Below are positions 8,087 through 63,618 of a stretch of DNA of 64,000 nucleotides, in pieces. The notes below the pieces were generated by a model, which ran no database searches, had not been told where the DNA came from, and saw only the letters and a program-made list of their open reading frames with translations. Within the stretch, counting starts at the first letter, position 1, and each line of letters starts with the position of its first letter. The translations under genes and the position numbers were made by a program. Source of the stretch: Gammaproteobacteria bacterium CG11_big_fil_rev_8_21_14_0_20_46_22 (GTDB lineage: Bacteria; Pseudomonadota; Gammaproteobacteria; UBA12402); contig PCWT01000048.1 in the NCBI GenBank assembly GCA_002796245.1, positions 71,858 through 135,857 on the forward strand, in the 5' to 3' direction.

Positions 8087-9433
8087 ATGGATTTAAGCAC
8101 CGAAAATAATCTACTCGCAAGGCTCGATCGCTTGCCTATTTGGCCCTATTCTCGCGGCGTCTTGCTCACTATAGGCCTCGGCTTTTTTTTCGCCTTCTTT
8201 GATATCATCACGATTGGTCTGGCCATTCCGGTTTTGGTCCAGCAGTTCCATGTTAGTTTGTCGCTGGTTTTGTGGTGTATCAGCAGCAGCTTGATCGGTT
8301 ACATTGTTGGCTCTTTGTTTGACAGTGTTTTGTCGGATTTTTTCGGTCGACGTCTGGCTTTGATTTTATCCATGTTGTTTTTCAGTGTGGGCTCAATATT
8401 GTCAGCCTTTAGCCCGAATATATATTTTTTAATCGCCATGCGTTTTATTATTGGCATGGGCATTGGTTCAGAAATTGCGAATGTGACGACCTACTTGGGC
8501 GAGCTATCGCCAGCCAGCATTCGAGGCAAAATGACCAGTGTGGCTGTGGCACTGGGCTTTTTAGGTTTTGCCGTGGTGCCTTTTGTTGGTCTTGCTTTAA
8601 TTCCTCATTACGTTTGGGGCTGGCGTGTGGTGTTTGCACTGGGTGGCTTGGGCGCACTGGTCGTCATGTTTTGTCGACGGTTTGTTCCACAATCGATACG
8701 CTGGTTGGTTTCGCATAGCAAGCTTGAACAAGCACGTGTGGAGCTTGAGGCGCTGGAGGCAAGAGTTGTATCACGGATAAAAAAAGCATTGCCGCCGATT
8801 GCAGCGTCAGAAGGCTTTGCGCCCTCTTCGTATAAAGATTTATTCAAACCGGCGCAGTTTAAAACGATACTGTTTTTTAGCGCGATTTGGTTTTTTTACT
8901 ATATCGGTAATTATGCTTGGCTAACCTTGGATACCAAGCTTTTTTTGCTGGGTGGTTTTGACCTGCACAATAGTTTGCTATTGGTGTCGGTATCTTCCCT
9001 CGGCTTTATTTTGGGCTCACTGTTTGCGATCTTTTTCAGTGATTGTTTCGAGCGAAAATACACGATTTTTGTTTCGGCTATCGTATGGGCTCTTTGTTTG
9101 CTCGCGATTGCTTGGTGGCCGAGCTTGTGGCTGATTATGGTTTTGGGTTGTTTGGCTGCGATCACTATTTCAATACTTATCCCACTGCTCTACACCCTAA
9201 CCGGCGAGAGCTTTCCAACGGCATGCCGCGCCACAGGTATTTCAGTAACCGATGGTGTAGGTCATTTGGGGGGCGCGTTTTGCGGGCAAATTATTTTTGC
9301 GGTGTATGATTATACGAAAGCCTCTGGGCACGGCGTGAGCTTTGCGTTTACGGCGATGGCTATCACAGGCTTAATCACGGCGATTATGGTGCTGTTTGGT
9401 TTGCGCATGACACGGCAAAGCTTGCAGCAGTAA
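8087..9433 (+). CDS. MFS transporter (12 TM).
   Basis: 448-aa polytopic protein with MFS-like loop motifs (GRRLALI, R-rich loops). Confidence 0.8.
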   Translation: MDLSTENNLLARLDRLPIWPYSRGVLLTIGLGFFFAFFDIITIGLAIPVLVQQFHVSLSLVLWCISSSLIGYIVGSLFDSVLSDFFGRRLALILSMLFFSVGSILSAFSPNIYFLIAMRFIIGMGIGSEIANVTTYLGELSPASIRGKMTSVAVALGFLGFAVVPFVGLALIPHYVWGWRVVFALGGLGALVVMFCRRFVPQSIRWLVSHSKLEQARVELEALEARVVSRIKKALPPIAASEGFAPSSYKDLFKPAQFKTILFFSAIWFFYYIGNYAWLTLDTKLFLLGGFDLHNSLLLVSVSSLGFILGSLFAIFFSDCFERKYTIFVSAIVWALCLLAIAWWPSLWLIMVLGCLAAITISILIPLLYTLTGESFPTACRATGISVTDGVGHLGGAFCGQIIFAVYDYTKASGHGVSFAFTAMAITGLITAIMVLFGLRMTRQSLQQ

Positions 9434-13306: not shown

Positions 13307-15115
13307 ATGTTAGACCTTAAACACATCGACGTTCAATTTTCAGATCACACGCTTTTTTCGGATGCTAATTTTACGCTTTATGCTGGCCAGAAATACGGCG
13401 TGGTTGGCCGAAATGGCGCGGGTAAGACCACATTTTTTTCATTGATACAGAAAACACTATCGCCTGATGGTGGTGAAGTGGTGTACAACGATCGCCTGCA
13501 TATCGCGAGCGTCACACAAGAAATCGATAGGCTCGACTTGCCCGCCATTGATTATGTGATCGAATCCTACCCTATTATTGGTAAGCTTTGGTTGGACATG
13601 AAAGCCTTTGAGCAATCGGAAGACTATGAAAAGCTCGCTGATGTGCACATGCAGTTGGCTGAACACAAAGCGTATGATATCGAAGCACTGGCCGCTAAGA
13701 TTTTGCACGGTCTGGGTTTTGCACAGGATGAGCTGCAGCAAACTGTTGGCGCTTTTTCCGGTGGTTGGCGTGTGCGTTTGAATTTGGCGCGCTGTTTGAT
13801 TCAGCCGGCTGAGTTAATGTTGCTGGATGAGCCAACCAACCATTTGGATATGGACGCGATCATTTGGTTACAAGACTGGTTGAAAAGCTATTCTGGCAGT
13901 TTAATGGTGATTTCACATGATCGTTATTTTTTGGATCAAGTCACGGAATACACGCTGGCCATCGAGCAGAAAAAACTGATTCCCTATAAAGGCGGCTACT
14001 CTCAGTATGAGCAAGAAAAAGTCTTGAAAGCTGAGCTTGCTGAAAAGCAAGCTAAAAAACAGGCTAAACAGCGCGAACATTTACAATCCTTTGTCGATCG
14101 TTTTCGTGCGAAAGCCTCTAAAGCCAAACAGGCTCAAAGTCGCATGAAGATGTTGGAAAAACTGCCAACCATTGCCTTAGCGCAAGCCGACTCCCCCTAC
14201 CGCATACAGTTTTTTGAAAGTGAGGCCTTAAGTAACCCGGTGCTTAAATTGGAAAACTTTAGCTTCGCTTATGATGAGGCCCCTGTGTTTAATAAAGCGA
14301 ACTTTGGTTTGAATCAAGGTGATCGCTTAGGTTTGCTGGGGTTAAACGGTGCTGGTAAATCAACACTTGTAAAACTCATGGCTGCTCAATTGCAAGCACA
14401 ACGCGGCGAAAGAATTCAAAGTGCTAAGCTTAACATTGGGTATTTCGCGCAGCACCAAGTGGAGCATTTAAAATTAGAAGAAAGCGCTTATCAACATTTA
14501 CAGCGCTTGGCGCCTGGCAAAACAGCCTCGGAGCTTAGAGGTTATTTAGGCGGCTTTCATTTCAGTGGCGATAAAGCACTGCAAAAGGTTGAGAGCTTTT
14601 CAGGCGGCGAAAAAGCGCGCTTAGCACTCGCCTTAATTATTTGGCAACGCCCTAACCTCTTGTTACTCGATGAGCCGACCAACCATTTAGACATGGATAT
14701 GCGCGAAGCGCTCACGATCGCTTTACAAGATTATGATGGCGTGCTGATTTTAGTCTCGCATGATCGTCATTTGCTAGAAGCCACGGTGGATCAATTTTAT
14801 TTAGTTGATGGTGGCCAGGTCGCACGCTTTGAAGGTGATTTGGATGACTATGCGAATTGGTCTAAACAACGCCGTGAGATTAAACCCAAATCATCGCCTA
14901 AACCCAACGCTAAAGCAGCGGTTGTCGACAGCAAAGCCATAGCGCGAATTGAAAAAGATATCGAAAAAGCCACAGATGCCCTGGCCAAGATTGATCAGGC
15001 CATGAGTGCTTTGGCGCAGGATGATTTTGACGCCATGGCCAAATTAGCCAAAGAGCGCAAAGCCCTTGAAAACCAACTGGCCAAGCTAGAAGAGGCCTGG
15101 CTTGAGGCGCAGTGA
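13307..15115 (+). CDS. ABC-F family ATPase (translation factor, Uup/YheS-like) with a C-terminal coiled-coil.
   Basis: Two ABC cassettes (GRNGAGKTT / GLNGAGKST, LSGG-like signatures, DEPTNHLD x2), no TM domain, and an Ala/Lys-rich tail. Confidence 0.9.
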   Translation: MLDLKHIDVQFSDHTLFSDANFTLYAGQKYGVVGRNGAGKTTFFSLIQKTLSPDGGEVVYNDRLHIASVTQEIDRLDLPAIDYVIESYPIIGKLWLDMKAFEQSEDYEKLADVHMQLAEHKAYDIEALAAKILHGLGFAQDELQQTVGAFSGGWRVRLNLARCLIQPAELMLLDEPTNHLDMDAIIWLQDWLKSYSGSLMVISHDRYFLDQVTEYTLAIEQKKLIPYKGGYSQYEQEKVLKAELAEKQAKKQAKQREHLQSFVDRFRAKASKAKQAQSRMKMLEKLPTIALAQADSPYRIQFFESEALSNPVLKLENFSFAYDEAPVFNKANFGLNQGDRLGLLGLNGAGKSTLVKLMAAQLQAQRGERIQSAKLNIGYFAQHQVEHLKLEESAYQHLQRLAPGKTASELRGYLGGFHFSGDKALQKVESFSGGEKARLALALIIWQRPNLLLLDEPTNHLDMDMREALTIALQDYDGVLILVSHDRHLLEATVDQFYLVDGGQVARFEGDLDDYANWSKQRREIKPKSSPKPNAKAAVVDSKAIARIEKDIEKATDALAKIDQAMSALAQDDFDAMAKLAKERKALENQLAKLEEAWLEAQ

Positions 15116-49126: not shown

Positions 49127-50482
49127 TTGCCTCTGTGCTTTTGTGGCAAACGCCCTAAGCTCAACCAATCCACTGTTTTGGCCGCGGTGACGCTAACAAC
49201 ACGCTACACGGATGAAACATTTTATGAGGATATTTTTCGTGTTGAGCCGGGATGTGCGGTCTATTTAACGCGAAAAGGCGAGCTGAGGAAGACGCGGTAT
49301 TGGGCGTTAGACCCCGAGGTTCATGACTTAAAAATTTCTAGTGATAAATCTTGTTTAAGTCGATTTTCTGATTTGCTAGAAGAGTCTTTGCTTTATTACA
49401 CGAACGGTGTCGAAGACGGCCTGGCTGGTGAGTTGAGCGGTGGTTTGGATTCTTCAACGATACTAACTGCCGCGAAAGCGCTCGGTTTAAATTACCCTTT
49501 ATTTATGCATGTTGCGCCAGAGCCAGAAAACAACACAACAGGTCAATAAGATGATAGTGATTTGGCAAGGCTTCTCTTAAAGCAGCTTGGTATAAATGCT
49601 ATTTCATTTGTTGGTTCACGGGGTTTTGATCTAATAAAAGAGCTGCGTTACTGTTCAGAGGTCTTTGCCGGGTTACCTGCATTTTTGTTACCCATGTTTA
49701 CCCAAAATACCAATCATGCAGTTTTACAAGCGGGTAAGCGCATTGTGCTATCAGGCACTGGTGGGGATGAGTGTGTTTCCTCGCGTGCTCCAGCGACTTG
49801 TTCTCATGCGAGTACTTTTCGGCAGCAAGGTCTAGCTGTTGTTTGGCGACAATTTTTTCACGAGCACAGAAACTGTCTTTTATCATTAAGTACATTAAAA
49901 AAGGCAGAAAAGTTGTTCAAAGCGATGCATCCGGCGATCTTCTTTGTCTTGACTCGGGTTGAAACGGCTAGTTCGCCGATAAAAAGCTTGCTAAAAGAAA
50001 ACGTTCGTCACACACCGATTTTTTACAAAAAAGGTTATTATAAAAGCGTCCGTGCTTATGAGTGGGATCATCTACAGGGCTCTAGAAGTGATACATTGCG
50101 TTGGCGTATCGAGTATCACGCCATGTTGGGCGACCACCAGGGGCTGGAGTACCGTTATCCTTTGCTTTACCCTAAGCTTGTCGAGTTCTGTTTTCATCTG
50201 CCTGAGAAATTTAAGCGACGAGATAGAGTTGGGCGCTATCTCGTGCGTGAATACTTAAAGGCTCGGGGTGTACCCCAGCCTGTTTATTCAAAGACTCAAA
50301 AAACGGGCGCCAGTATTCCTGCCACGATTGAAACGGCTTTTCAGTACTTGCGTGATCCTATCGTTAGGCAAGGGTTAAAAGACCTACCTTGGTTCAAAAA
50401 AGCCCGACGAAAAACAGCTCACGAGGAGCTGATCGCTTGGGTCTATTGCTACATGCTTAATCACTACCCAAAAAAGCATTAA
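49127..50482 (+). pseudogene. Disrupted paralog of the AsnB-family PP-loop synthetase at 52492. It lacks the first ~85 aa and has an in-frame TAA at 49547-49549 where the intact copy has GTG (Val).
   Basis: The two ORFs 49127..49549 and 49562..50482 are in the same frame. They align colinearly with the 52492 protein (SGGLDSS, YPLLYPKLVEFCFHLP... ~75% identity in that stretch). Confidence 0.7.
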
Positions 50483-51304: not shown

Positions 51305-51401
51305 TACGTGTCATTTTAAGCGCGCTATTACCTCTACTGTTATTCCTGTGCTTACCGTCATTCCCGCGCAGGCGGGAATCCATTAAATTAAGGAGTTCAC
51401 C

Positions 51402-51728
51402 ATGAGCAAAACGATACACTGTGTGGGCTGCGAAGGCGGCATAGAGGCCTTGCCAGAGTCTGAAATTCAGGCGCGCATCGCACAATATCCGGATTGGCGC
51501 TATGACGCTGGCAAACGTCGCCTGACGAAAACCATCGAGTTCAAAGGCTTTTTAAAAACCATGAGTTTTGTCAACGCCGTGGCCTGGATGGCCAATCGCG
51601 AAATGCACCACCCTGATCTTGAAGTGAGTTTTAACCGCTGCATCGTGCACTTTCAAACCCACGCGGTGGATGGCGTGACTGAGAACGATTTTATTTGTGT
51701 GGAAAAAGTGGAAGCCTTGCTCGACTAG
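51402..51728 (+). CDS. phhB: Pterin-4a-carbinolamine dehydratase.
   Basis: PCD-fold motifs (FxxAVAWxAxxExHHPD). RBS AGGAG. Confidence 0.9.
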   Translation: MSKTIHCVGCEGGIEALPESEIQARIAQYPDWRYDAGKRRLTKTIEFKGFLKTMSFVNAVAWMANREMHHPDLEVSFNRCIVHFQTHAVDGVTENDFICVEKVEALLD

Positions 51729-51814
51729 GTGTTTTTTACGGAGATAAAAAAGCTTGGCAATCGCAATATTTTTTGGGTAGACTTGGTGCCCAAGTTAGCA
51801 CAAGGAGTGAGGCC

Positions 51815-52300
51815 ATGAAGTCCTTTCTGTTTTCAAAAAAATCTGCGTTGATTTCAATTGCCTTGCTGGGAAACGCTGCTTATGGTGTCACGGTAAATAA
51901 TTTATTTTCTCCTTCGGCAGAGAATAGCGTGGGCTGTACTGTTATTATTGGGAACAGTCCGTCGGGGTCCAAAACGGTGACATCAACTCGGGTTACCCCA
52001 TATAGTGACGCAAACTGTGTTACTGCAATATCTGGGGGGCAGAGAAATGTGGGGGCAACTCCCGCTGCGACATTTTCTTCTGGTACAACTAGGCGCTGTA
52101 ATGCAGCATCGTTATACGCCATTTTGGCAATTGCTGGTGGTACTCCAACAAATGCGCGCTCCGTTTTTATTGAGCCACTGGATGGGGTCAATCCAATTTG
52201 GGGCGGTACTGGAGGAGCTTGCTTTAACGTTAGCTGTACTTTAGGCTCTCCTAATCAGTGCACATCAGCAGACGTGGGTAACGTTGCTAATGCATCTTGA
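51815..52300 (+). CDS. Secreted Gly/Ser/Thr-rich protein with 6 Cys (161 aa). The start is taken at MKSFLF.
   Basis: RBS AAGGAG, and a signal peptide MKSFLFSKKSALISIALLGNAAYG. No recognisable family. Confidence 0.55.
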   Translation: MKSFLFSKKSALISIALLGNAAYGVTVNNLFSPSAENSVGCTVIIGNSPSGSKTVTSTRVTPYSDANCVTAISGGQRNVGATPAATFSSGTTRRCNAASLYAILAIAGGTPTNARSVFIEPLDGVNPIWGGTGGACFNVSCTLGSPNQCTSADVGNVANAS

Positions 52301-52491
52301 TTTGTTTGTTGTGCAATTTCTTAGAGATTTAAGCCGTGAAAAAAACCCCTACTTACACTAACCTGATCGATTTTTCTTTAGAAAGAAAAGACTGTTGGGT
52401 AAGGCCGCATCTTCTTGTTGTATCGGTTTCAAATGTTACTCAGGGCGGTGACGGCGGTGGTGACGAAGTCAATGGTATGTGGAGCTAGTCT

Positions 52492-54057
52492 TTGTTGACG
52501 GCTCTACACATTATTTGCGCTAGCGAAAGCTTGGAATCGTACAAAGGAATGCTTACTCCTGCGGGTTTTGATAAAAACCACCTTCGAGCACTATCCAACC
52601 CTTCATTAGTCCTCGCCCGAAGCGAATTTGGCCAGGAGCCGTTATATTATTACTACGATCAAAAAACGCTAATCTACGGTCACACCATCCCTGACATTAT
52701 TCAAAAGCTAGAAACCCATCCTGTTTTAGATCACGATGAAGTGCTTAAGCTTATGGCTCAGCGGCGCACATACACTGACAAAACGATTTACCAACACATA
52801 TACAGCGTTGAGCCGGGCACCATTGTGTATCTCACAGCACAAGGCGAGCTGAAAAAACATCGCTACTGGCAGCTGGACCCCAATGCAGATGATCTTGTGC
52901 TGAAAAGTGATCAAGCGTATTTCAATCGCTTTGACGAGTTGATGCAAGAGTCGCTGCATCACAACACGCAGGGCTGTGAGCACGATATTGCCGGCGAGCT
53001 CAGCGGTGGACTGGATTCATCCAGTATTTTAACGGCGGCTCAGTCGCTGGGCTTGCACTATCCTTTGTTTATGCATGTCGCGCCAGAAAATCCTCGTTTT
53101 GACCAAGTGGATGATAGCCACTTGGCCAAGCAAGTGCTTTCGTATTTTGGTTTGAGCGATGTGTCGTTTGTGGATGCGAAAAACTTTGATTTCTTTGCAG
53201 AGCTTGAGTTCGCAGCCCGGGTGTTTGCAGGGCCGGCATCCTGTATTTTACCGGTAATGGCGCAGAACGTTGGGCGCGCCGTGGCGCAGTCTGGCAAGCG
53301 GATTTTATTATCGGGCGCTGGTGGTGATGAGTGTGTGTCTTCTCACGCGCCGGAGTCAGCTTACCTTGCCGGCCAATTTCGTGAGCGGGGCGCGCGTGCC
53401 GTTTGGCAAGCATTTTTTAAAGAACAGGCCAGCAGCTTATTGTCGTTCACGACGTTAAAAAAAGCCGAACAATTATTCAAGGCGATGCACCCTGCGATCT
53501 TTCATGTGCTGAGTCGATCAGAAAGTACCGCCAAGCTCAGCTACATGCTGTGTCGTCAGGGTTTTAAAGGGTTGCCACCTAAAACAACGTTCTCTAAAAA
53601 GCGTTATTACACAAGCATTCGTGCGTTTGAATGGGATCGGCTTCAAGGTTCAACCAGTTGTTTTTTGCGCGGTCGCATTGAGCACCATGGCATTTTGGCC
53701 AATGCCACAGGCTTTGAATACCGCTACCCTTTACTTTACCCGAAACTTGTGGAGTTTTGTTTTCACTTGCCGGCACGATTTAAGCGCCGAGATGGCGTGG
53801 CGCGCTATATGGTGCGTGAGTACTTAAAGGCCCACGGTCTGCCTGAAGACGTGTATTCAAAGCAGCAAAAAGTGGGCGGCATTGCACCAGGTACCTTGGA
53901 AAATGTCTTTGAGCTTATGCAAGACTCAGGCTTTCTGGCGCGTTTTGAGAATTTGCCCTGGGCGGATAAAGTGGTTAAAACGACATCCCACAACAAACTT
54001 ATCGGCTATATTCCGGCCTATATGCTCCATTATTATCAGACCGTGTTACAGCGTTAG
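52492..54057 (+). CDS. Asparagine-synthetase-B-family PP-loop ATP-pyrophosphatase lacking the N-terminal glutaminase Cys. It resembles lasso-peptide cyclases, beta-lactam synthetase and CarA.
   Basis: ELSGGLDSS PP-loop. No MCG nucleophile. ~520 aa. The listed start is a TTG; an ATG alternative is at 52546. Confidence 0.8.
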   Translation: MLTALHIICASESLESYKGMLTPAGFDKNHLRALSNPSLVLARSEFGQEPLYYYYDQKTLIYGHTIPDIIQKLETHPVLDHDEVLKLMAQRRTYTDKTIYQHIYSVEPGTIVYLTAQGELKKHRYWQLDPNADDLVLKSDQAYFNRFDELMQESLHHNTQGCEHDIAGELSGGLDSSSILTAAQSLGLHYPLFMHVAPENPRFDQVDDSHLAKQVLSYFGLSDVSFVDAKNFDFFAELEFAARVFAGPASCILPVMAQNVGRAVAQSGKRILLSGAGGDECVSSHAPESAYLAGQFRERGARAVWQAFFKEQASSLLSFTTLKKAEQLFKAMHPAIFHVLSRSESTAKLSYMLCRQGFKGLPPKTTFSKKRYYTSIRAFEWDRLQGSTSCFLRGRIEHHGILANATGFEYRYPLLYPKLVEFCFHLPARFKRRDGVARYMVREYLKAHGLPEDVYSKQQKVGGIAPGTLENVFELMQDSGFLARFENLPWADKVVKTTSHNKLIGYIPAYMLHYYQTVLQR

Positions 54058-54147
54058 GGTTTAGACACGTCAGGGTTTAGAAATTGATCAACCTTGTATT
54101 TTTTGATACAATGGCACCAGAAAAATAAGAACGAGCGAGTTTTTTCT

Positions 54148-54720
54148 ATGTTTCAAGAGCCACAAAACGCCCTTCCATTGTGTTCATATTTTATTGAACA
54201 GCTTGAGGCCGATCCCCTTTATAAAGAAGCCTACTCTGACCTTATTGCTCGGCTTCGGTGTTTACAGGTTGATGCTCAAAGTGATAGGCCTCCATTGGGT
54301 TTTCAGCCGCTTCCATCAGTGATTGGTAATATCCTCGAATACCAGGTTGCTGACGAATGCCAGAAAAAAACGGATTTTCCATTGAGGAGGTTGCTTTTAA
54401 CCTACTTTAATAAGCAACAAGGTTTTAACGCTTTTTTGTTGACTTTGTTGAGCCCCTACAGCCTTGTTCGTGTGGTTGCGCGGGGTTATTACCTGTCTCT
54501 GGGTTCTTCAGAACAAGGGTTAAAAGGCTGTGTTGGCAACGTGATTAATGCAGTCGAGGCGATCACAGAGAGTGGCCACGTCAATCAAAATATCCAAACG
54601 GAAGTTTTACCAAGCCTGCGTCGCGTGCTTGGAGAAAATAGTAAGCTTGAGCAGCTTATCCTGGCTAAGTTAGGGCCGCTGGATAATCAGCCGGTCTTCG
54701 CTCCAGTGAGCTTTAGGTGA
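54148..54720 (+). CDS. Hypothetical protein, co-directional with the AsnB-like gene and 36-90 nt downstream of it. The start is uncertain (TTG at 54094 or ATG at 54148).
   Basis: ORF only. No transglutaminase-like Cys/His/Asp spacing was recognised. Confidence 0.45.
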   Translation: MFQEPQNALPLCSYFIEQLEADPLYKEAYSDLIARLRCLQVDAQSDRPPLGFQPLPSVIGNILEYQVADECQKKTDFPLRRLLLTYFNKQQGFNAFLLTLLSPYSLVRVVARGYYLSLGSSEQGLKGCVGNVINAVEAITESGHVNQNIQTEVLPSLRRVLGENSKLEQLILAKLGPLDNQPVFAPVSFR

Positions 54721-54820
54721 TAAGCTTGAAGTGAGGCCAGCTAGGCAAAAATCACCTGTGCCGATGCGATAAACTTCGCGCATTTTTAAACCAGCTGTGC
54801 TATGATGCGTCCGTATATTT

Positions 54821-55224
54821 GGGGGCGTCATTGGTTTCGACGTGATTTACAAGACCCAAAGTGCATGCCGAGTGTGTAAGCTACTCGCTAAACAAGCTGC
54901 AATCGTTATAATTGCAAACGATACTACTTTTGCTGCTGAGGACGCTATCGCTGCCTAACCGGCAGAGGAGAAATCCTCTCTCGTCGTACTAAACCTACGA
55001 CACAGCCCAGCGACCGCGTGAGCCCGCGCGTGTGGAAGCTGGTAATTTAGCGGGATCGCGACGTGGAGTGTCTAGCAACATCGTCGTTAAATGTAACCGC
55101 TAGGCTTGCCTTGTGTGATCCTGTCGGTCGGAGCGCATAAGGTGACACAAAAGACCGCTCTAAGCATGTAGACCTTTGTGTTGCGATTTTGCGGACGCGG
55201 GTTCAACTCCCGCCGCCTCCACCA
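54821..55224 (+). ncRNA. ssrA: tmRNA (SsrA).
   Basis: 5' end GGGGGCGUCAUUGGUUUCGACG. Tag reading frame GCA AAC GAT ... GCT GCC TAA (ANDTTFAAEDAIAA). tRNA-like 3' end GGGUUCAACUCCCGCCGCCUCCACCA. Confidence 0.85.
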
Positions 55225-55301
55225 ACGCAACCGCTTGATTTATTTGGACTTTCTTATCAACTCAAAAGGCCGCGGGAAATTGGCGGGAAACAACTGAAAA
55301 C

Positions 55302-56462
55302 TTACCACTGATTAACAGGCCGATAACCTCCAAAAATATTTTGATCCGGAATCCACCGCGTATAGTACCGTGCTGTTGTCAACATTGTTTCATGCCCCAT
55401 CTGCCCAGAAACCCATGGAAAATACTCGCCACCCGATACCATCATCGACGCAAATGTATGACGTGTTTGATATAAATTACGATATTCAATATTGGTTATC
55501 TTGAATAATGGCAGCCATGCCTGTTTCCGCATTTCGCTCGCATCTTTCCATGGTCGCTTTTTTTGAGGGTTGAAAAATATATAGGATTGCTGCCAGAGCG
55601 TATACTGCTTTTGTGCTTTTAAAGCACTTAAAGCAGGACGTAAAAGCTGTACGGTTCTCCTGCTCCTCTTCGTTTTAGTAGGCCTTACTTTACCTTGAAC
55701 AACAATACGTCTGATGTAAATAAAACCATTTTCTAAATCAACGTCCTCCCAGCGCAAACCAACCAATTCTGCGGTACGCAAGCCAGTATAGAAAGCAAAT
55801 TGAAATAGATTTTTAATTTGCCCTTCTGCAGTCGCTAACAACTTATAAATTTCAGCTTGTGTAAACGGATTAACTTCATAAGTTGATTTAATTCTCGTTA
55901 AAAGTTTAAGATCAATAAGCGTAAAAGGATTAACCGTAAGATAGCCTCGGATCATAGCCTCTGCAACAACGTACCTCAGTGGCGTCAATATATTAAGGAT
56001 AGTTTTTCGCTGACACTTAAATTTATTCAACCAATCCCAAATAATACCTGCGCTGAGTTCAGTTACAGGTAACTTTCCAAAAGCCAGTCTTAAATGTTTA
56101 TTACATGTCCTTTGATAGCGATCATAAGTATTGTCGCTTACACGTTGTTTTATCCTTTCTAAATACAAATCTATTAACTCATTGACAAGCGTTGCCTTTG
56201 GCACATGTCCAAACCTAATTGCATTTTTTGAATAAGGAAAAAAATCAGTATAATTAAAGTCGCCAAAAGCAATCGCTTTTAAAAGCTCTTTTCTCAAGCG
56301 AATGGCTTTTTTGATATTTCTTGTATTAACTGTAAAATTCAGTTTTTCACGGCAGTACTTATATCGATAACGAAATGTTATCCGTAAACTCTTTTTTCCT
56401 GTTTTGGAAATTCTAACGTAAACACCCGTTGCAACTCGAGTTTCAGTTTCTTTCACACCCAT
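55302..56462 (-). CDS. int: Tyrosine recombinase (P4-type integrase).
   Basis: C-terminal catalytic region with R...HxxR...Y (TRHTFAS...ARYYTRW). Confidence 0.9.
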   Translation of the reverse strand: MGVKETETRVATGVYVRISKTGKKSLRITFRYRYKYCREKLNFTVNTRNIKKAIRLRKELLKAIAFGDFNYTDFFPYSKNAIRFGHVPKATLVNELIDLYLERIKQRVSDNTYDRYQRTCNKHLRLAFGKLPVTELSAGIIWDWLNKFKCQRKTILNILTPLRYVVAEAMIRGYLTVNPFTLIDLKLLTRIKSTYEVNPFTQAEIYKLLATAEGQIKNLFQFAFYTGLRTAELVGLRWEDVDLENGFIYIRRIVVQGKVRPTKTKRSRRTVQLLRPALSALKAQKQYTLWQQSYIFFNPQKKRPWKDASEMRKQAWLPLFKITNIEYRNLYQTRHTFASMMVSGGEYFPWVSGQMGHETMLTTARYYTRWIPDQNIFGGYRPVNQW

Positions 56463-56527
56463 GCTTTTATCTCCTATATAAATTAAGCTTTAATAACATA
56501 ACCTAAATTTAATCAAGGAGTACAAAA

Positions 56528-56740
56528 ATGTTAGAAACAGATAAAAAACCAACAAGATTATTGAGGCTCAAAGAAGTAAAACATCGCACAGGGCTGTCAC
56601 GCTCATCTATATACCTTATGATATCAGAAAATCAGTTCCCCCGACAAATTCAATTAAGTGGCAACCGCAGTGTTGCATGGGTTGAGCAAGAGATTGAAGA
56701 GTGGATACAAATGAGAATTAAGCTTAGCAACCACACATAA
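56528..56740 (+). CDS. alpA: AlpA-family transcriptional regulator/excisionase.
   Basis: LLRLKEVKHRTGLSRSSIYLMISENQFP HTH typical of AlpA. Confidence 0.8.
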   Translation: MLETDKKPTRLLRLKEVKHRTGLSRSSIYLMISENQFPRQIQLSGNRSVAWVEQEIEEWIQMRIKLSNHT

Positions 56741-56792
56741 ACCTAATGCTTGTCATAAATGTTGCCTAACTCATTATAAATAAAAGTGGCTA

Positions 56793-58607
56793 TTACTTAT
56801 CTAACAAATGGTTTGGTATTAATATACAAGGGTCGCCCGTTGGTGTAAGGATAGTGCAACGAGCCATTGCCCGCGTCACGCTAACCCTCAGCATGTATTT
56901 GTAATGAACCAAGTCCTGGCTATTTGTATTTCCTCTGACAATGCGATCAGGGTTTCCAATTAATTTTCCTTCCTTTTTCTGTGGCCATCCTTCAAAAATA
57001 ATCACCTCATCAAACTGTTTCCCTTTCGATTTATGCATATTCATGATCACCACACCATATTCAGACCTTGATGATACAGAAAAATGCTCCTTCTGAAAAA
57101 ATCGCCTAAAAGAATCCAAGGCATTAGTATAAGCTCCTCTGTCTCTCCAAGCTTGCGATAAAATATTTCTTAGTTGCACACCTCGTCTCAATAACTTTAA
57201 GTTCTTTACCTCTTCAATGATTTGTTTCAATCTTTTGCAGCCAGACTTTTCTAAAGCAGACGAAATATGTTGCCAATCAACCTTTGGAGTACCTGTTAGT
57301 GATATACCACGTGCTGAGTCATATCCTTCAAGCATTGGCTTAAGTATACTATTTTTTGCAAATTTTTTTTCCTGAATGAATTTGTCGTAAGCTTTTTTTA
57401 TGTTAGTCGATTCGCTAATATCTTTCTTAGTAGGCGAATCACTGCCTTTTCCCTGAAAAAAATTGCACACTAATTCAATGAACAGTGATTGATCGTCATC
57501 TGCTTTTTTAGGCTGAAAAAAGAATGCAAATATCTCAGCCGCTAACAAAGTAGCATTCATGTCTATAGAGGCAGTATGCGGAATAATAGGCAGCTTATTT
57601 TGCTTGCTACCAAAATAATTAGATACATCCCGCATCATTTTTTTTGTGGGTACTAGGACAGCAACTGACCAGTCATGATTAGAGCTTGATTTTAATCTTT
57701 TTACTGATTGTAAGGCTTGACCTTTTAGGGCAGCAAAAGCTTGGTTTTTATTTGGCTCAAAAGTCTTGCAACATACCCCAACATAGTTGTCTCGAAAATT
57801 TTTACCTTTTAATATGTCGTTACCAAATAATAATATATCAGTGCCGTGACTACGATGATTTTCATCTTGCAGATTAAATTCACTTGGGTTAAATTCCTTT
57901 ATAAAATGAGTTAGCCTTTCCGGATCCGCGCCAATAAAATCATAAATCCTCTGCTCTGGGTCAGCCAAAGCGATTAATTCACTATTTTGACCAAGCAGAT
58001 TAACAACATCCCATTGTGCAGCACTGGTATCTTGAAACTCATCAAGAATGATATAAGGATATGTATCCGAAATTAATTTTTTAATCTTTTCGCTGCCAAG
58101 CAAAATATCATGAACATAATTGGCAAATAAATCAAAACACACACGCCCTTCATTTTTGGCTATCTGATGTCTCTTGGCACTTTCTTCCTTATTTTTATTA
58201 TTAATATCTGTCTCAGTTAGCTGGGAAATAGAACCATATTGATGTCTTATTGAAGATAGAGCAACGGCCTCAGCAGGTGGATTCAATACTGATAGTTTTC
58301 TTGGCAATCCCAATAAATAACCATGTGATTTCATAATTTTCCAAAAAAATGAATGATAAGTATCGATTTTGATATTCTTACAATCATGCAAGTTATTTTT
58401 AGCATGTTTTTCTAAGGTTTCGACAATTCGTGCTACACTTTGCCTCGCAAAGCTTAGAAACAATATCTTCCGCCCATCACTAAGTTCATTTGCTATGTTA
58501 ATTGCCTTCAAGATTGAAATAGTTGTTTTGCCTGCTCCTGGTCCGCCAATGATTAATAGGTGCCCTGTTGCTTGCAAAATTTCACGCTGCTTGTTAGACA
58601 GATTCAA
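56793..58607 (-). CDS. gajB: UvrD/Rep-family helicase, GajB-like partner of the OLD-family ATPase.
   Basis: GGPGAGKT Walker A and TYHSFF motif Ia. It overlaps the upstream GajA-like gene by 14 nt. Confidence 0.8.
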   Translation of the reverse strand: MNLSNKQREILQATGHLLIIGGPGAGKTTISILKAINIANELSDGRKILFLSFARQSVARIVETLEKHAKNNLHDCKNIKIDTYHSFFWKIMKSHGYLLGLPRKLSVLNPPAEAVALSSIRHQYGSISQLTETDINNKNKEESAKRHQIAKNEGRVCFDLFANYVHDILLGSEKIKKLISDTYPYIILDEFQDTSAAQWDVVNLLGQNSELIALADPEQRIYDFIGADPERLTHFIKEFNPSEFNLQDENHRSHGTDILLFGNDILKGKNFRDNYVGVCCKTFEPNKNQAFAALKGQALQSVKRLKSSSNHDWSVAVLVPTKKMMRDVSNYFGSKQNKLPIIPHTASIDMNATLLAAEIFAFFFQPKKADDDQSLFIELVCNFFQGKGSDSPTKKDISESTNIKKAYDKFIQEKKFAKNSILKPMLEGYDSARGISLTGTPKVDWQHISSALEKSGCKRLKQIIEEVKNLKLLRRGVQLRNILSQAWRDRGAYTNALDSFRRFFQKEHFSVSSRSEYGVVIMNMHKSKGKQFDEVIIFEGWPQKKEGKLIGNPDRIVRGNTNSQDLVHYKYMLRVSVTRAMARCTILTPTGDPCILIPNHLLDK

Positions 58608-60345
58608 TAGGCACCTCTTTCTGTGCCAGGTCTACATTATTTTCGCCATTACATAGTAATTTAATTTCTTTGCAAGTATTCTTTATCCAGTCAGGTATTT
58701 CATTTTCCGCACATTGCGCTAAAAAACTTGCTATAGCACCGTCCCCCTTGTACTTTATAAAGTAAGCCTTTAGCGCATCGGCTGAGTTTTCTTTTGGATT
58801 TTCATATTTTTGTTTTAAATCTTGCGGCCATTCTAAACTATCGATAAATCTAGTAATTGCATCTTGCGCTGTATTATTCAAAACAAGATCCTCAAAGCCT
58901 TTCTCGTCATGCATAAATAACTGATCAACTGCTTTTTCTATATTTCCTTTATTCTCATCCATTTGTTTATCACATAAACCAAATACTTGCTTATCAAGGT
59001 TTTTGTACACATTAGCTAAAGCTACTAATTGTGAATCAGTTCCAGCATCAATCACGCAAAGGCCTAGCATTTCAAAATTTGCATAATCATTTGAATTTAG
59101 CTCAACTAAACGTCTTGCAACAACTGGCATAGCAGCAGCTTCTGTCGCTCCTTCAACAATTAATACCCGTCTTGACAATAACCCTTCGCAAAACCTCGTA
59201 CGAAATTCTTGTCTATATCTTTTAGGCTTAATGCTATCTGGCAACTCAACTTTTGCCTGATTAAGTACGCCATTGGAATTTCGGGATAAAATAACTGTTT
59301 CATCTAAATTAAATTCTTCTATTACGTAAGGTGAGTGAGAGGTAAAAAATGTTTGGGATGATAGTAGCCGTATTTCATGCACGATACGTTTTTGGGTATA
59401 TGGGGGAATTGCCGTTTCTGGTTCTTCCATAGCAAAAATAACATTTTGTTTCGCCTCAGCAATCATGGAAAGCATAGCAAGCACTAGCATGTTAATTGTT
59501 CCTGTGCCTTGACGATAAAATGGCAGATAATGATCGCCATTGCCAGTGGTAACAAAGGCTGTAATGATTTTTCTTAAATGCTCTCTCGTGAGATTAGAAA
59601 TTTTCAAATGAGGCGAAGCACCCCATTCTTTAGGAACAAATTTTTTAATGCTACTTTCTATATTTTTAAGAATTCCTACAACACCAAGCTCTGATTCAGA
59701 TGCCACGTCACGTGTGCTTAATTCTTCAATCGTTTTTTCCCACATTTGTGGTCGTACTTCTTTTATACGAAGAATAATATCTAATAAGCTACCATGCTCT
59801 AAACTTAATGCGCGAGATCCCGTTCTTATTGAGCGAAGATATAGAAAGCCACATTTTTGCTTGTCTTTTTTCTTAAAAGGTTGAGACGTATCATTATCAA
59901 CCAAGCTTCTCGTAAAGTAAGTAGCACCAGTAAAATCGTCTTCATCAGCATCATAATAACCTTTAAAACAGACGCGTAAGGCTGCCAATGTTGAATCCCT
60001 ATCAACGCTATTTAGTTCAGAAATTAATTCTTTTTTGTCTTTGTTCCACCACTCGATAGTATCAGAAAAATGGCGCTGTTGTTCTTCATTTAAATCGACA
60101 ACAACTGCTTCAATAGATATCTCTACAAGCTGATCATCTGATCTGTACATCCCATTATAAAAATCATGTTCATCGATGATGGGACGTCTATTAAGTCTAT
60201 CTGGGCCTAAAACCAAATCAAGTGCTTCAAAAATAGTTGATTTACCAGTATTATTATCACCAAGCAGTACCGCGTGATCTGGAAAGAATAAATTCGCTGA
60301 ATGTATTCCCCTAAAATTTTTAATCTCAAGCTTTGCCACTTTCAT
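58594..60345 (-). CDS. gajA: OLD-family ATPase–Toprim nuclease, GajA-like (class 2 OLD).
   Basis: N-terminal ABC ATPase (LLGDNNTGKST) and a C-terminal Toprim (VLIVEGATE ... VIDAGTD). Confidence 0.8.
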   Translation of the reverse strand: MKVAKLEIKNFRGIHSANLFFPDHAVLLGDNNTGKSTIFEALDLVLGPDRLNRRPIIDEHDFYNGMYRSDDQLVEISIEAVVVDLNEEQQRHFSDTIEWWNKDKKELISELNSVDRDSTLAALRVCFKGYYDADEDDFTGATYFTRSLVDNDTSQPFKKKDKQKCGFLYLRSIRTGSRALSLEHGSLLDIILRIKEVRPQMWEKTIEELSTRDVASESELGVVGILKNIESSIKKFVPKEWGASPHLKISNLTREHLRKIITAFVTTGNGDHYLPFYRQGTGTINMLVLAMLSMIAEAKQNVIFAMEEPETAIPPYTQKRIVHEIRLLSSQTFFTSHSPYVIEEFNLDETVILSRNSNGVLNQAKVELPDSIKPKRYRQEFRTRFCEGLLSRRVLIVEGATEAAAMPVVARRLVELNSNDYANFEMLGLCVIDAGTDSQLVALANVYKNLDKQVFGLCDKQMDENKGNIEKAVDQLFMHDEKGFEDLVLNNTAQDAITRFIDSLEWPQDLKQKYENPKENSADALKAYFIKYKGDGAIASFLAQCAENEIPDWIKNTCKEIKLLCNGENNVDLAQKEVPIESV

Positions 60346-60848
60346 TTCTATTTCCCTAAATACCGTTGCTCACTTACCTTAATAACAATTTTAAGCTTCG
60401 GCTCTAAAAGTTCTTTTTGCCCGACCAGTTAGGCGTTTGTTTGGAAGGCTTAAAGGAGAGCTTAATATACCATTAAAAAACATATATCATACCAGCATCG
60501 CAATCTTGTCCCAAGTCACACCATAAGCCTAACATAAGGCCATGCTCGATAATATTTTAGCTAGAAAATCACTAGTGAGCCTTGAAATACCCAAAAGCTA
60601 ACTATTTCAAGTCTCAAAACGCCTAAATCTGTGCACCAAGCAGTAACTAGGTATAACAAAAGACAACAAACCATTTCTCTTTAACTTTAATTGATTTTCA
60701 TTTTTTAGTTATTGAAAAGACCGCAGGAAATCAATGAAGGAAGATATTTTTTCCGATGATTCACTGGCAGGCAGTTACAATAAAGGTAAACCTGTTATTA
60801 ACTAGCTACTATAAAAACGGTTTGCGCCAATGCAAATAAACCAAAGAT

Positions 60849-60873
60849 ACTTATAGTCTGTAGACATAAAGTC
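60849..60873 (+). promoter_or_regulatory. C-box operator for the controller protein: ACTTATAGTC-tgta-GACATAAAGTC, the C.PvuII-type GACTnnnAGTC tandem.
   Basis: Read directly. It is 25 nt upstream of the C gene ATG. Confidence 0.55.
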
Positions 60874-60897
60874 ATCTTTTCGATACTAATAAGCAAC

Positions 60898-61149
60898 ATG
60901 AAGCATCAAATTTTACAGAATCATCCTGACAAGTTGCAAAAAATATTTGCTCAAAATGTTCGTATTGAACGAATAAAAATGAATATGACACAAGAAGAGC
61001 TTGCTGATATATGTGGCTATCATCGAACATATATTGGCTCCATAGAAAGAGGAGAGAGAAACGTTACTCTAGCAGCTATTGAGGCACTAGCTAAAGCATT
61101 TAAGGTCAAGCCATATCAGCTATTGGTAAGAGATAATGAACAAAATTAG
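60898..61149 (+). CDS. R-M controller (C) protein, XRE-family HTH.
   Basis: 83-aa HTH protein (MTQEELADICGYHRTYIGSIERGERN) overlapping the downstream REase gene. Confidence 0.8.
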   Translation: MKHQILQNHPDKLQKIFAQNVRIERIKMNMTQEELADICGYHRTYIGSIERGERNVTLAAIEALAKAFKVKPYQLLVRDNEQN

Positions 61150-61876
61150 CAAGCCAGATAACATGTCTCAAGAATTTTACGAGGCTTGTATAGCAGTTGA
61201 AGGCAAACGTGCACGCACCGTCATTAACCACATTCTTCAGAATGGCTTTATAACAACTGAAGAATTAAGTGATATCTATGCCTATGATCATCCGCCAAGA
61301 GCCGCTAGAGATGTAAGAGAAAATGGAATCCCGCTAAAAACCTACAAGGTAGTAAGCAAAAAAACAGGGCGGAAGATTGCAGCCTATAAATTTGATTTTA
61401 GTGAAAAAACTAAAGGCAGAATTGGAGGCAGAAAAGCATTCTCTATACAATTTAAAAAAAAGCTAATTGAGAGATATGGATCATGCTCAGTTCTAACTAA
61501 CGAAAAGATTAACCCTCGATACTTACAAATAGATCATCGTATCCCCTATGAAGTGGCGGGCAACGACGCAAACGAAGATGTTGAGCATTATATGCTACTA
61601 GATGCTTCTGAACAACGCGCAAAAAGTTGGTCTTGTGAATCATGCGAAAACTTCCGCACAAACAAAGATAAAAATATCTGTGAAAATTGTTTTTGGGCAT
61701 ATCCGGAAAACTATTCTCATATTGCAATGAAACCAGAACGTCGTTTAGATATCTTGTGGTCTGGAGATAACTGCAAGCAATACGAACTACTAGTCACAGA
61801 AGCAAAAAAAGAAAACCAATCTCCACAATCACTTATTAAAAAATTACTAAAAGACAGTTTTTCTGACAGTAATTAG
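61136..61876 (+). CDS. Type II restriction endonuclease, HNH family, with Zn-ribbon cysteines.
   Basis: YLQIDHRIPYEVAGN HNH core and CESCENF...CENCFW motifs. It lies between the C gene and a convergent MTase. Confidence 0.7.
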   Translation: MNKISKPDNMSQEFYEACIAVEGKRARTVINHILQNGFITTEELSDIYAYDHPPRAARDVRENGIPLKTYKVVSKKTGRKIAAYKFDFSEKTKGRIGGRKAFSIQFKKKLIERYGSCSVLTNEKINPRYLQIDHRIPYEVAGNDANEDVEHYMLLDASEQRAKSWSCESCENFRTNKDKNICENCFWAYPENYSHIAMKPERRLDILWSGDNCKQYELLVTEAKKENQSPQSLIKKLLKDSFSDSN

Positions 61877-61899
61877 AAAAGCCAGCGATTTTTTCTTTT

Positions 61900-62778
61900 T
61901 TATATTACCCCTCCTTTTTGACACCAACTATCCGCATAATGTAATAACTGGCGCGAAATATAAAGGCTTTCAATTGTCTCTTCAGATCGACCCGAAAGTG
62001 TTGCCTGGGAAGAGCGGCCTGCTGCAATCCAAAGACGCTTCATTTTCAAATATTCAGGGAGCTCATCTGCATACTCCACATTACCCGTTTTACCGTCATA
62101 TGAAAGTATGAAAGGAACGTCCCTATTATTGATAAATTCTAACCCTTCTATCAGCGCATCTCTTCCAAGCTGCATAAAATAACGCTTATCACGACCATAC
62201 GTAGTTCCGTGATATGGAGGATCCATGTAAACTAAATCACCTAGTTTGGCGTCCTTAATACTATCTCGGAAATCGCCACAACGCACAATTACCCTTCCTT
62301 TGAGAAGTTGACTAACTTCATTGATTGATTTTTTCATCCTTTCTGGCCGCGTACCTAAACGTCTCTTATCCGCAGATTGCGTAAAATCACCATTCCTATT
62401 AAAGCGTACTGCATTTTTTACACATCTTGCCACTAGGTAGAGAAGATCCACTGGATCTTTCTCTGCATTAAAGCGCTCACGAATTTTCAGAAAATAATCA
62501 GGGCTCTCTGCATAACCCTTCCATATTTCTTCGTAACGCCTACCAGTTTTCTCTGGATGATTAATAATCTCTTCCCAAAGTTTGGCCAGAGGCTCAAGAG
62601 AGTCAGCTATTACATATTGTTTGGCTAAATTATTAGAGGCCGCATAAATAGTTACTGCCGCAGATCCAGCAAACGGTTCATAGAAAGTATTAACACTTTT
62701 TGGCATAAGAGTGCAAATACGCTTAGCAAGATTTCTCTTGCTTCCTTGATAAGGAATAACATGAGGAACATTTTTCAT
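61900..62778 (-). CDS. N6-adenine DNA methyltransferase, Dam-like (alpha group, D12 class).
   Basis: Motif X PYQGSKR, motif I FYEPFAGSAAV, motif IV DPPY. Confidence 0.9.
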   Translation of the reverse strand: MKNVPHVIPYQGSKRNLAKRICTLMPKSVNTFYEPFAGSAAVTIYAASNNLAKQYVIADSLEPLAKLWEEIINHPEKTGRRYEEIWKGYAESPDYFLKIRERFNAEKDPVDLLYLVARCVKNAVRFNRNGDFTQSADKRRLGTRPERMKKSINEVSQLLKGRVIVRCGDFRDSIKDAKLGDLVYMDPPYHGTTYGRDKRYFMQLGRDALIEGLEFINNRDVPFILSYDGKTGNVEYADELPEYLKMKRLWIAAGRSSQATLSGRSEETIESLYISRQLLHYADSWCQKGGVI

Positions 62779-63061
62779 TTATACTACAATTACACGCATT
62801 AAATTGATACTTAAAGTCATCATATAAGAAAATCTTACCCTATGCAAGAGTCAGGAAAACATCCCCACATCCGCCTATTATTTTTGCACAATATAATCCG
62901 TGAATCCGGGGGATCACCAGGGGATCATCTGCCGACAATCAGTGACAATGAAATACAATTCGACAATTTAGCAACTTTGTTAACTCTTTGATAGAAGCTG
63001 TATTTCATTGTATTTGATTGTCTTTGGCAGCATTAAATTGACTACGTTTTGACCGGCTGCG

Positions 63062-63081
63062 TTTTCGACTCCCGCCGCCGC
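63062..63081. repeat. Putative attR: imperfect direct repeat of the ssrA 3' end (GTTTTCGACTCCCGCCGCCG vs GGTTCAACTCCCGCCGCCTCC).
   Basis: 15/17 identity over the core, read directly. Confidence 0.5.
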
Positions 63082-63181: not shown

Positions 63182-63310
63182 ATGCATGATGATTTTAAAA
63201 AAAGTGCCTGGCATAGCCCAAGCTTAATGATCTTGTCGCTGCCTGTTGTAACAGCGGGTGGTGGTGAGGGCGCAGAGGGTGATGCTGGCGGAAGCTTTTG
63301 GAGAAGCTAA
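63182..63310 (+). CDS. Candidate lasso-peptide precursor (42 aa): MHDDFKKSAWHSPSLMILSLPVVTA|GGGEGAEGDAGGSFWRS.
   Basis: Thr at leader position -2. The core starts with Gly and has Glu7/Asp9 available for a 7-9-membered ring, with an F/W/R tail. It is immediately upstream of the PqqD-like RRE. There is no obvious SD, and the ORF was too short for the ORF track. Confidence 0.45.
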   Translation: MHDDFKKSAWHSPSLMILSLPVVTAGGGEGAEGDAGGSFWRS

Positions 63311-63333
63311 CACAATCGTTTGGTCAATCAAAT

Positions 63334-63618
63334 ATGAAAAGCTTCTCAAACAATACAGTACTGAGCCGAAACACGACATTAATGGCCGCAAACGTTGACG
63401 ACGATCTTGTAATGATGGATGCAGACCAAGGCGTTTATTTTAGTTTAAACCCCGTGGGCGCAGCCATTTGGGCTCTACTTGAAACCCCAAAAACCTATGA
63501 TGATTTGATCTCAGGTCTGTTGTCTCAATACGAAGTCACTCGCGAAACGTGCGAGCAGGATGTTCAGCCCTTTTTGAGCGAGCTTGTTGATAATGGGCTT
63601 GTGATGCTTGGCGGTTGA
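63334..63618 (+). CDS. PqqD-family RiPP recognition element (lasso B1-like). The start is taken at MKSFSNN.
   Basis: DDDLVMMDADQGVYFSLNPVGAAIWALLETPKTYDDLISGLLSQYEV...DVQPFLSELVDNGLVM matches the PqqD/RRE fold pattern. No other PQQ genes are present. Confidence 0.75.
   Translation: MKSFSNNTVLSRNTTLMAANVDDDLVMMDADQGVYFSLNPVGAAIWALLETPKTYDDLISGLLSQYEVTRETCEQDVQPFLSELVDNGLVMLGG

Follow-up and report, generated by a model that had tools for sequence, protein, structure and literature searches.

A PqqD-like recognition element and the lasso-peptide precursor beside it probably belong to a paeninodin-type system split between loci in an uncultured gammaproteobacterium

What is the role of a lone PqqD-like gene that directly follows a 42-codon open reading frame (ORF) and has no peptidase gene for company? 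Such a pair lies on contig PCWT01000048.1 of Gammaproteobacteria bacterium CG11_big_fil_rev_8_21_14_0_20_46_22, a metagenome-assembled genome (MAG), near the end of the 64,000-nt stretch analyzed here (the window; contig positions 71,858 to 135,857). The original prediction, made from the letters alone, took the pair for a lasso-peptide precursor next to a recognition element for ribosomally made, post-translationally modified peptides (RiPPs), in a locus that would be dispersed, degenerate or of non-canonical architecture. Our analysis supports the lasso-peptide reading and, among these three options, shows the dispersed one to be correct, a gene for the leader peptidase B2 being found on a different contig of this MAG. 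It is likely, in our judgment, that the two genes, termed A2 and B1, belong to a paeninodin-type (C-terminal-Ser, kinase-associated) lasso system that is kept in at least two separate loci.

63182..63310, + strand: A2, putative lasso precursor peptide (ORF; W-x-x-P-x-L leader, Thr(−2), Gly1, Glu7/Asp9, C-terminal Ser)
63334..63618, + strand: B1, stand-alone PqqD-type RiPP recognition element (RRE), assigned by Pfam, NCBIfam, a clade hidden Markov model (HMM) and predicted fold

B1 encodes 94 aa and was present as described, except that it starts 23 nt rather than 24 nt past the A2 stop codon. Profile searches agreed with its assignment as an RRE: the protein matched Pfam PqqD (PF05402) with an E-value of 5e-21 (75 bits, cutoff 23.4), its best NCBIfam model was NF033536, lasso_PqqD_Bac (74.1 bits, positions 3-87 of 88), and the B1 HMM of the cyclase clade introduced below scored 98 bits at 63283-63615 of the window. 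The pyrroloquinoline quinone (PQQ) model PQQ_PqqD (TIGR03859) reached 24.2 bits against a cutoff of 46, and weaker NCBIfam matches were to the ScmD, GeoRSP and WgkC chaperones. Within 10 kb on either side, neither pqqB/C/E nor radical S-adenosylmethionine (SAM) genes were present. A single-sequence AlphaFold model (AF2; predicted local distance difference test score 79.7) comprised three strands followed by three helices, and its top Foldseek matches in the PDB were the TbiB1–leader complexes 5v1v/5v1u plus 6jx3_B, with the genuine PqqD 5sxy ranking lower. Template modelling (TM) scores against the lasso B1 structures were 0.75-0.79, at 28-33% identity; these proteins (5v1v, 5v1u, 6jx3) bind a YxxPxL leader, and the likeness of the window B1 to them is one of predicted structure. 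A word-indexed search for PqqD relatives returned a single protein. The nearest relatives of B1 came from the loci L010 and L086 (46% identity each), both of which are complete clusters. By profile and predicted fold, 63334-63618 is a lasso B1/RRE, that is, a putative leader-binding chaperone.

The 42-aa ORF was found at 63182..63310 (+) with exactly the sequence first quoted. It divides into a leader, MHDDFKKSAWHSPSLMILSLPVVTA, and a predicted core, GGGEGAEGDAGGSFWRS, cleavage being placed after Ala25. Read from sequence, the junction (...VVT-A/GGG, the slash marking the cut) provides Thr at position −2 and Gly1, and the core carries the acidic residues Glu4, Glu7 and Asp9, a tail with F14-W15-R16 and the C-terminus ...FWRS. 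Hence all the features originally named, Thr(−2), the Gly start, Glu7/Asp9 and a bulky F/W/R tail, are present. In the leader, W10-H-S-P13-S-L15 corresponds to W(−16), P(−13) and L(−11), a Trp-to-junction spacing identical to that of the further precursors of this genome introduced below (A1, A3 and A4) and of those from the related loci L002 and L005.

Could so short an ORF arise by chance? This was excluded, because, when all six frames of the 64 kb were scanned for T-x-G together with the leader motif, only two intact short ORFs came up, A2 and A1, which both abut lasso genes and can be aligned with each other (BLASTP 1e-6; 37% identity), and because homologous small ORFs adjoin related cyclases in ~35 other loci. 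Both were also called as genes by the JGI gene caller on contigs of the same strain. Taken together, the sequence features support A2 as a lasso-peptide precursor.

The second ORF of the scan belongs to a cassette with an asparagine-synthetase-like gene, upstream of which lies a decayed copy of the latter:

52336..52488, + strand: A1, second putative lasso precursor (leader motif scan, alignment to A2)
52492..54057, + strand: C1, asparagine-synthetase-like lasso cyclase (macrolactam synthetase), assigned by Pfam, NCBIfam, motifs and context
49127..50482, + strand: C′, decayed cyclase paralogue (N-terminal ~75 residues gone; in-frame stop at 49547-49549)

Of these parts, C1 had been listed in the original prediction along with A2 and B1, while A1 and C′ had been missed. 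A1 encodes 50 aa, its leader ending in ...DCWVRPHLLVVSVSNVTQ and its predicted core being GGDGGGDEVNGMWS, with Asp7 and Glu8 and the C-terminus ...GMWS. Its stop codon lies 3 nt before the C1 start, and a GGAG within its last codons is positioned 7 nt 5′ of the C1 TTG; the same arrangement recurs in L005, L002, L006 and others. C1 matched Pfam Asn_synthase (1.4e-21) and scored 106 bits on the NCBIfam asparagine synthase model, whose cutoff is 267. Its description as a glutaminase-less AsnB-like synthetase was accurate: the N-terminus (MLTALH...) is without Cys2, the glutaminase nucleophile, and the PP-loop (ELSGGLDSS, residues 169-177) is intact and, like LSGAGGDE (273-280), made up of invariant clade columns. 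A sequence search with C1 retrieved no solved lasso-cyclase structure, the top matches being 7ylz and AsnB. Compared with a relative in L087 (91% identity over 244 residues, dS 0.86), C1 has a dN/dS of 0.05, and is therefore, by this measure, a constrained, working gene under strong purifying selection. C′ is a decayed paralogue: its N-terminus is gone, an in-frame stop interrupts it, and what is left matches C1 in two stretches (residues 76-199 at 56%, residues 211-515 at 51%). Genes for phenylalanine hydroxylase and pterin dehydratase lie directly 3′ of it, and a 306-aa fragment of it is annotated as hypothetical (COV52_05965).

How common are such cassettes? C1 has ~90 homologues at 30-47% identity, as compared to ~25% for canonical lasso cyclases. 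A profile scan, taking one genome per species, yielded 80 clade loci, mostly from uncultured Legionellaceae, Legionellales and Coxiellaceae, with few from Neisseriaceae and Burkholderiales and an outgroup from Bacteroidales. Clustering of the neighbouring ORFs and scanning of the cluster representatives against profiles revealed recurrent partners: PqqD (B1), B2 (representative at 73 bits on NF033537, cutoff 33; invariant Cys and His), an HprK-like kinase (Hpr_kinase_C, 40.9 vs. 33.3), NTP_transf_5 (145 bits), a sulfotransferase (115 bits) and an ATP-binding cassette (ABC) exporter. One subclade encodes a subtilisin-like serine protease after kinase-B1-B2 (L032 7897-9360, L042 14059-15510, L043 6000-7457, L051 4340-5788), and in L043 the order is kinase-B1-protease without a B2, which hints at this protease as an alternative leader peptidase.

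Nearly all clade cyclases are adjoined by precursors, and about a third of the loci also hold B1, B2 or kinase genes; the AsnB-like homologues thus do sit in RiPP contexts, and the small ORF is conserved as a family beside related genes in dozens of genomes. We collected 38 precursors from ~35 loci, all next to cyclase or B1 genes. Every one of them contains [WY]xxP, and 36/38 the longer [WY]xxPx[LIMVF]; under the assigned site, cores start with G/S/A in 35/38 and carry Asp/Glu at positions 7-9 in 30/38, with T(−2) in 24/38. A C-terminal Ser was found in 37/38 precursors vs. 9% of control small ORFs. In characterized systems, recognition involves Tyr(−17)/Pro(−14)/Leu(−12) and Thr(−2), with B1 aiding the kinase as well (PMC10368454); the kinase acts on the C-terminal Ser, which kinase-bearing clusters conserve (PMC9266682).

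The clade loci fall into two kinds of neighbourhood. About 15-19 of ~60 loci had B1, B2 or kinase genes no more than 10 kb away, and precursor and cyclase stood alone in at least 20 whose flanks measured at least 8 kb on both sides. Several MAGs contain two to four cyclase loci each: CANNJI, CANJSM, JBAZRP and CAZATM combine orphan cassettes with one B1+B2+kinase locus, and JAPLRK and CAYYEZ combine them with one locus bearing B1 and kinase, in which B2 was not seen. A tree built by neighbour joining intermingled orphan cyclases with those embedded in clusters, and grouped C1 with the orphans L002, L006 and L007.

If A2, B1, A1 and C1 are parts of one system, where are the others? The observation that the window lacks a B2 was upheld: clade HMMs detected neither B2 nor kinase, nucleotidyltransferase (NTase), sulfotransferase or protease in the window plus 10 kb beyond (best E > 0.1), and six-frame translations of the window and L001 (74 kb) gave a best B2 E-value of 0.2 and no HAW[VIL] motif in any frame. 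The suggestion that B2 might follow just beyond position 64000 proved wrong; the genes after B1 encode DUF2971, an alpha/beta hydrolase, smpB and MatE. An ABC (“D”) match at 13307-15115 was rejected as the exporter: it lacks a membrane domain, is a double ATPase of the ABC-F type and matched by its ATPase domains only. The protein database, searched with a B2 profile, returned no match labelled with this MAG.

JGI metagenome contigs were scanned with a narrow profile of L010-like B2 proteins, a wider B2 alignment proving too heterogeneous for this purpose. This identified nine loci, one of which, L095, shared its source sample with a contig from the strain seen in the window. Its gene order is alaS, aspartokinase, csrA, B2, HprK-like kinase, NTP_transf_5, two precursors (A3 and A4) and a cyclase (C2).

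L095 5947-6408: B2, putative leader peptidase (NF033537, 75.4 bits vs. 33; COV52_06515 / PIR10891.1)

On the clade HMMs, the L095 kinase scored 235 bits and the NTase 188 bits, along with a weak TIGR04352 match; for C2, lasso cyclase was the best model (186 bits). A B1 was not detectable in L095. Both precursors are Gly/Asp-rich and read ...GWSSPVLLKMRLMETSN/GVGLGADAGGFDDLPS (A3) and ...TWSKPSIKSLSVEKTAN/AGGDGADGATQHS (A4). Together with both L010 precursors (8828-9316), A3 and A4 (L095 8642-8962) share an invariant junction Asn (T-x-N followed by G/A), which makes their cleavage site ambiguous: Thr(−3), Gly/Ala1 and a seven-residue ring, or Thr(−2), an unusual Asn1 and an eight-residue ring. 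For A1 and A2, the site suggested by Thr(−2)/Gly1 is unambiguous.

Does L095 stem from the same genome as the window? Exact look-ups identified its proteins as PIR10886-10895 (COV52_06495-06525) of Gammaproteobacteria bacterium CG11_big_fil_rev_8_21_14_0_20_46_22 and found them also in the sister MAG CG12 (COW05_ tags); the window cyclase (COV52_05985, PIR11053) and PqqD protein (PIR11061) are in the same two MAGs. GC contents are 46.4% (L095) and 46.2% (window), and the tetranucleotide correlation of L095 with the host DNA of the window is 0.961 (rank 1/69; within-window control 0.959). Judged by these sequence comparisons, L095 is part of the same genome as the window. Moreover, the window B1 and the L095 B2 both have L010 proteins as best match (46% and 45%, next best 35-37%), as is expected if B1 and B2 are two halves of one ancestral cluster.

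The window thus contributes B1, A1, A2, a working C1 and a dead C′, and L095 contributes B2, kinase, NTP_transf_5, A3, A4 and C2. By analogy to paeninodin, Bsf and TbiB1, B1 would bind the W-x-x-P-x-L leader of all four precursors and present them to B2, which would cut after Thr(−2)-X(−1). B1 would probably also present the precursors to the kinase, which would phosphorylate the conserved C-terminal Ser. The cyclase would adenylate Glu7 or Asp9 in A2, and Asp7 or Glu8 in A1, and join this residue to the new Gly1 amine; should the A2 product thread into a lariat, F14, W15 and R16 of its tail would be the candidate plugs. Trans-action between the loci, the cyclase acting on A2, ring size, threading and phosphorylation are all proposed from the known systems. 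In the paeninodin system, B2 activity depends on B1, and B1 and B2 work independently of C (PMC5067487). A trans-acting B1 is therefore plausible and would provide a reason for B1 retention, and, with L095 lacking a B1, the window gene is the only known candidate partner of this B2.

Several points weigh against this reading. The NF033536 score of B1 is below the model's cutoff of 80, as is that of the L010 B1 (71.9 bits), which resides in a complete cluster. The A2 leader departs from YxxPxL in having Trp for Tyr and a spacing one residue shorter. C1 has NF033535, lasso cyclase, as its best NCBIfam model, yet at 131 bits is far under the cutoff of 525. The cyclase of the full L010 cluster also scores just 155 bits, so this model does not cover the C1 clade, and the membership of C1 among lasso cyclases therefore rests on context. 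C1 and C2 share 28% identity and are very divergent, and either may be the match of a given precursor. A dedicated exporter was found neither at the window locus nor in L095. A2 orthologues were confined to near-identical strains, so that selection on A2 was not measurable, and C′ signals that some erosion is under way. Furthermore, a MAG is a bin, and the contig bearing L095 ends 1,945 nt past the C2 stop (0.1 kb beyond L095); a second B1 is possible beside this contig end or elsewhere. Finally, the formation of a lasso product is something we infer from the parts.

Among the competing explanations, the one that fares best concerns only the sharing of enzymes between loci: A1-C1 could be a self-sufficient minimal system, its leader removed by a housekeeping protease, with B1 serving the L095 locus and A2 only. 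Precedent comes from pseudomycoidin, which PsmC alone makes in vivo without B1 and B2, and from B-less clusters predicted elsewhere, such as that of Stanieria cyanosphaera (Zyubko et al. 2019, PMC6993621). Like A1-C1, these comprise A and C without adjacent B1/B2 and are of the C-terminal-Ser, kinase-associated kind; here, in contrast, B1 and B2 exist at other loci. The orphan loci of the clade (at least 20, with A and C only), including L002, L006 and L007 as nearest relatives of C1, would fit a minimal system as well. However, A1 and the orphan precursors retain the B1 motif, Thr(−2) and the C-terminal Ser, a set that makes little sense unless B1, B2 and kinase act in trans, and a single B1/B2/kinase locus accompanies the orphan cassettes in several MAGs. 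We thus regard a self-sufficient A1-C1 as unlikely, if a serious contender.

Less probable still is that A2-B1 no longer functions, having been left beside ssrA when a cluster broke up, and makes no contribution to any product. The decayed C′ 3 kb 5′ of C1, the lack of B2, kinase, NTase and exporter genes within 74 kb and the fact that the nearest B1 relatives are all inside complete clusters would agree with decay, and no orthologue attests to selection on A2 or B1. Yet B1 is full length on its family model with a confident RRE fold prediction, A2 retains every defining feature, including the C-terminal Ser, despite its 37% identity to A1, and C1 is under strong purifying selection. In addition, the B2/kinase locus L095 is without its own B1, on which B2 depends in the studied system (PMC5067487).

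That the PqqD-like protein serves PQQ or another RiPP class beside a chance ORF is highly improbable: PqqD-type RREs do occur in many RiPP classes, as the weaker ScmD, GeoRSP and WgkC matches recall, but the PQQ model fell far below its cutoff while the lasso PqqD model gave 74 bits, PQQ and radical-SAM genes were missing from the surroundings, the fold matches placed lasso B1 over true PqqD, and A2 is a member of a conserved family tied to lasso genes.

Which known systems does the preferred reading, a paeninodin-type system in separate loci, resemble? In the paeninodin, pseudomycoidin and Bsf clusters (A, K, B1, B2, C, ±N, ±sulfotransferase, D), B1 and B2 are split, as here. Related full clusters of the clade share with them the genes for an HprK-like kinase, NTP_transf_5 and a sulfotransferase (PMC9266682, PMC5067487), and the features common to the precursors are a YxxPxL-type leader, Thr(−2), Gly1, Asp/Glu at 7-9 and a C-terminal Ser that hardly varies (PMC9266682, PMC10368454). 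An “A B1 B2 C K D” type from proteobacteria is already on record (PMC5067487). Unlike the paeninodin type, the present system is unclustered, with B1+A2, A1-C1 and B2/K/N/A3/A4/C2 as separate units, no exporter was found for it, Trp(−16) replaces Tyr, and its cyclase clade is ~25% identical to canonical ones. With microcin J25 (McjABCD) it shares a proteobacterial host, an Asn-synthetase-like cyclase and the ATP-dependent macrolactam step. The microcin J25 cyclase measures ~513 aa. There, in contrast, McjB is a fused B1-B2, kinase and C-terminal Ser rule are absent, and the genes form a compact operon with the exporter McjD.

The remaining features surround or separate the cassettes:

51815..52300, + strand: S, ~160-aa Cys-containing protein with a signal peptide, 5′ of A1 (recurrent A-C neighbour; membership uncertain)
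54148..54720, + strand: ORF X, 190-aa lineage-specific gene after C1 (probably outside the pathway)
54821..55224, + strand: ssrA, transfer-messenger RNA (tmRNA), located between the C1 and A2-B1 modules (ARAGORN)
55218..63053, no strand assigned: integrated defence island, outside the lasso system, separating C1 from A2-B1

S had no Pfam or NCBIfam match. Homologues of ~155 aa lie beside A-C in L006 (11609-12079), L008 (11358-11921), L034 (4895-5419), L060 (9172-9651) and L029 (9179-9664), with weaker matches in L002, L028, L005 and L038; an immunity protein, a partner or a target are possible roles. An S-like domain is also fused to Lcl_C in ~340-aa secreted proteins just 3′ of the cyclases in L015, L019, L021, L023 and L082. 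The grouping of such ~340-aa ORFs with cyclases was discarded as a single-linkage artefact, these being in fact the secreted proteins with S-domain and Lcl_C.

ORF X likewise lacked Pfam and NCBIfam matches and was not matched by the clade B2, kinase or NTase HMMs. Among 1.84 billion representatives, it had one homologue (58%; L087 810-1379), relative to which its dN/dS is 0.35 (C1, 0.05), and it is absent from all other clade loci. It was accordingly rejected as a hidden B2 or kinase, and is probably not part of the pathway.

Does the proximity of C1 to A2-B1 carry meaning? The 3′ end of ssrA is the attachment site of the island, and its 26-nt repeat (55192-55217 / 63054-63079) recurs 7862 nt apart; for this reason the original arithmetic, ~1.2 kb between the AsnB-like gene and A2 without a 7.9-kb island, holds (1263 nt once the island is removed). 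This closeness may nonetheless be incidental, because ssrA and ORF X intervene and C-X of L087 is not followed by ssrA. The island (GC 35-38% vs. ~46% for the host) encodes an integrase (55302-56462), AlpA, the Gabija proteins GajB (56793-58607; 707 bits) and GajA (58594-60345; 857 bits), and a type II restriction-modification system consisting of control protein (60898-61149), restriction endonuclease (61136-61876) and methyltransferase (61900-62778). A search for an island-free relative for synteny found none: in L088 and L089 the strain is the same and the island is present, the nearest relative, L087, diverges after ORF X, and no tmRNA gene was seen at other clade loci. The L090 contig, 100% identical to window positions 51353-55217, stops exactly at the core of the attachment site (...ACTCCCGCCGCC, 55217), which may reflect a population mixed with respect to the island. 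The ssrA tag peptide given by ARAGORN, AKQAAIVIIANDTTFAAEDAIAA, looks over-extended, ANDTTFAAEDAIAA being closer to typical tags; the program probably mis-set the resume codon.

What, then, would a split lasso system mean? The kind of system is known and its chemistry is that of the paeninodin type, so the advance lies in architecture and distribution rather than in mechanism; novelty is modest and resides in the split architecture and the orphan cassettes of Legionellales, for which a limited literature search returned no earlier report. Here, peptidase and kinase are encoded apart from the RRE, and a precursor with its working cyclase makes up a third unit. Lasso-peptide mining of genomes by tools such as RODEO and antiSMASH generally assumes that the cyclase, the B1/B2 pair and the precursor are co-located. 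Should the parts act in trans, several cyclases and precursors would be served by one B1/B2/kinase set, which would bear on the specificity required of the B1-B2-C hand-over, and lasso peptides would be under-counted in host-associated Gammaproteobacteria. For uncultured Legionellales and their relatives more broadly, we tentatively put forward, as a possibility rather than an expectation, a hub-and-satellite system in which a single B1/B2/kinase set, its genes at times unlinked from one another as in this genome, services several dispersed precursor-cyclase cassettes, many of them with S. Each genome would then hold a small lasso repertoire missed by cluster-based mining and, given the amoeba-associated lifestyle of the group, these lasso peptides might act in interactions with hosts or competitors.

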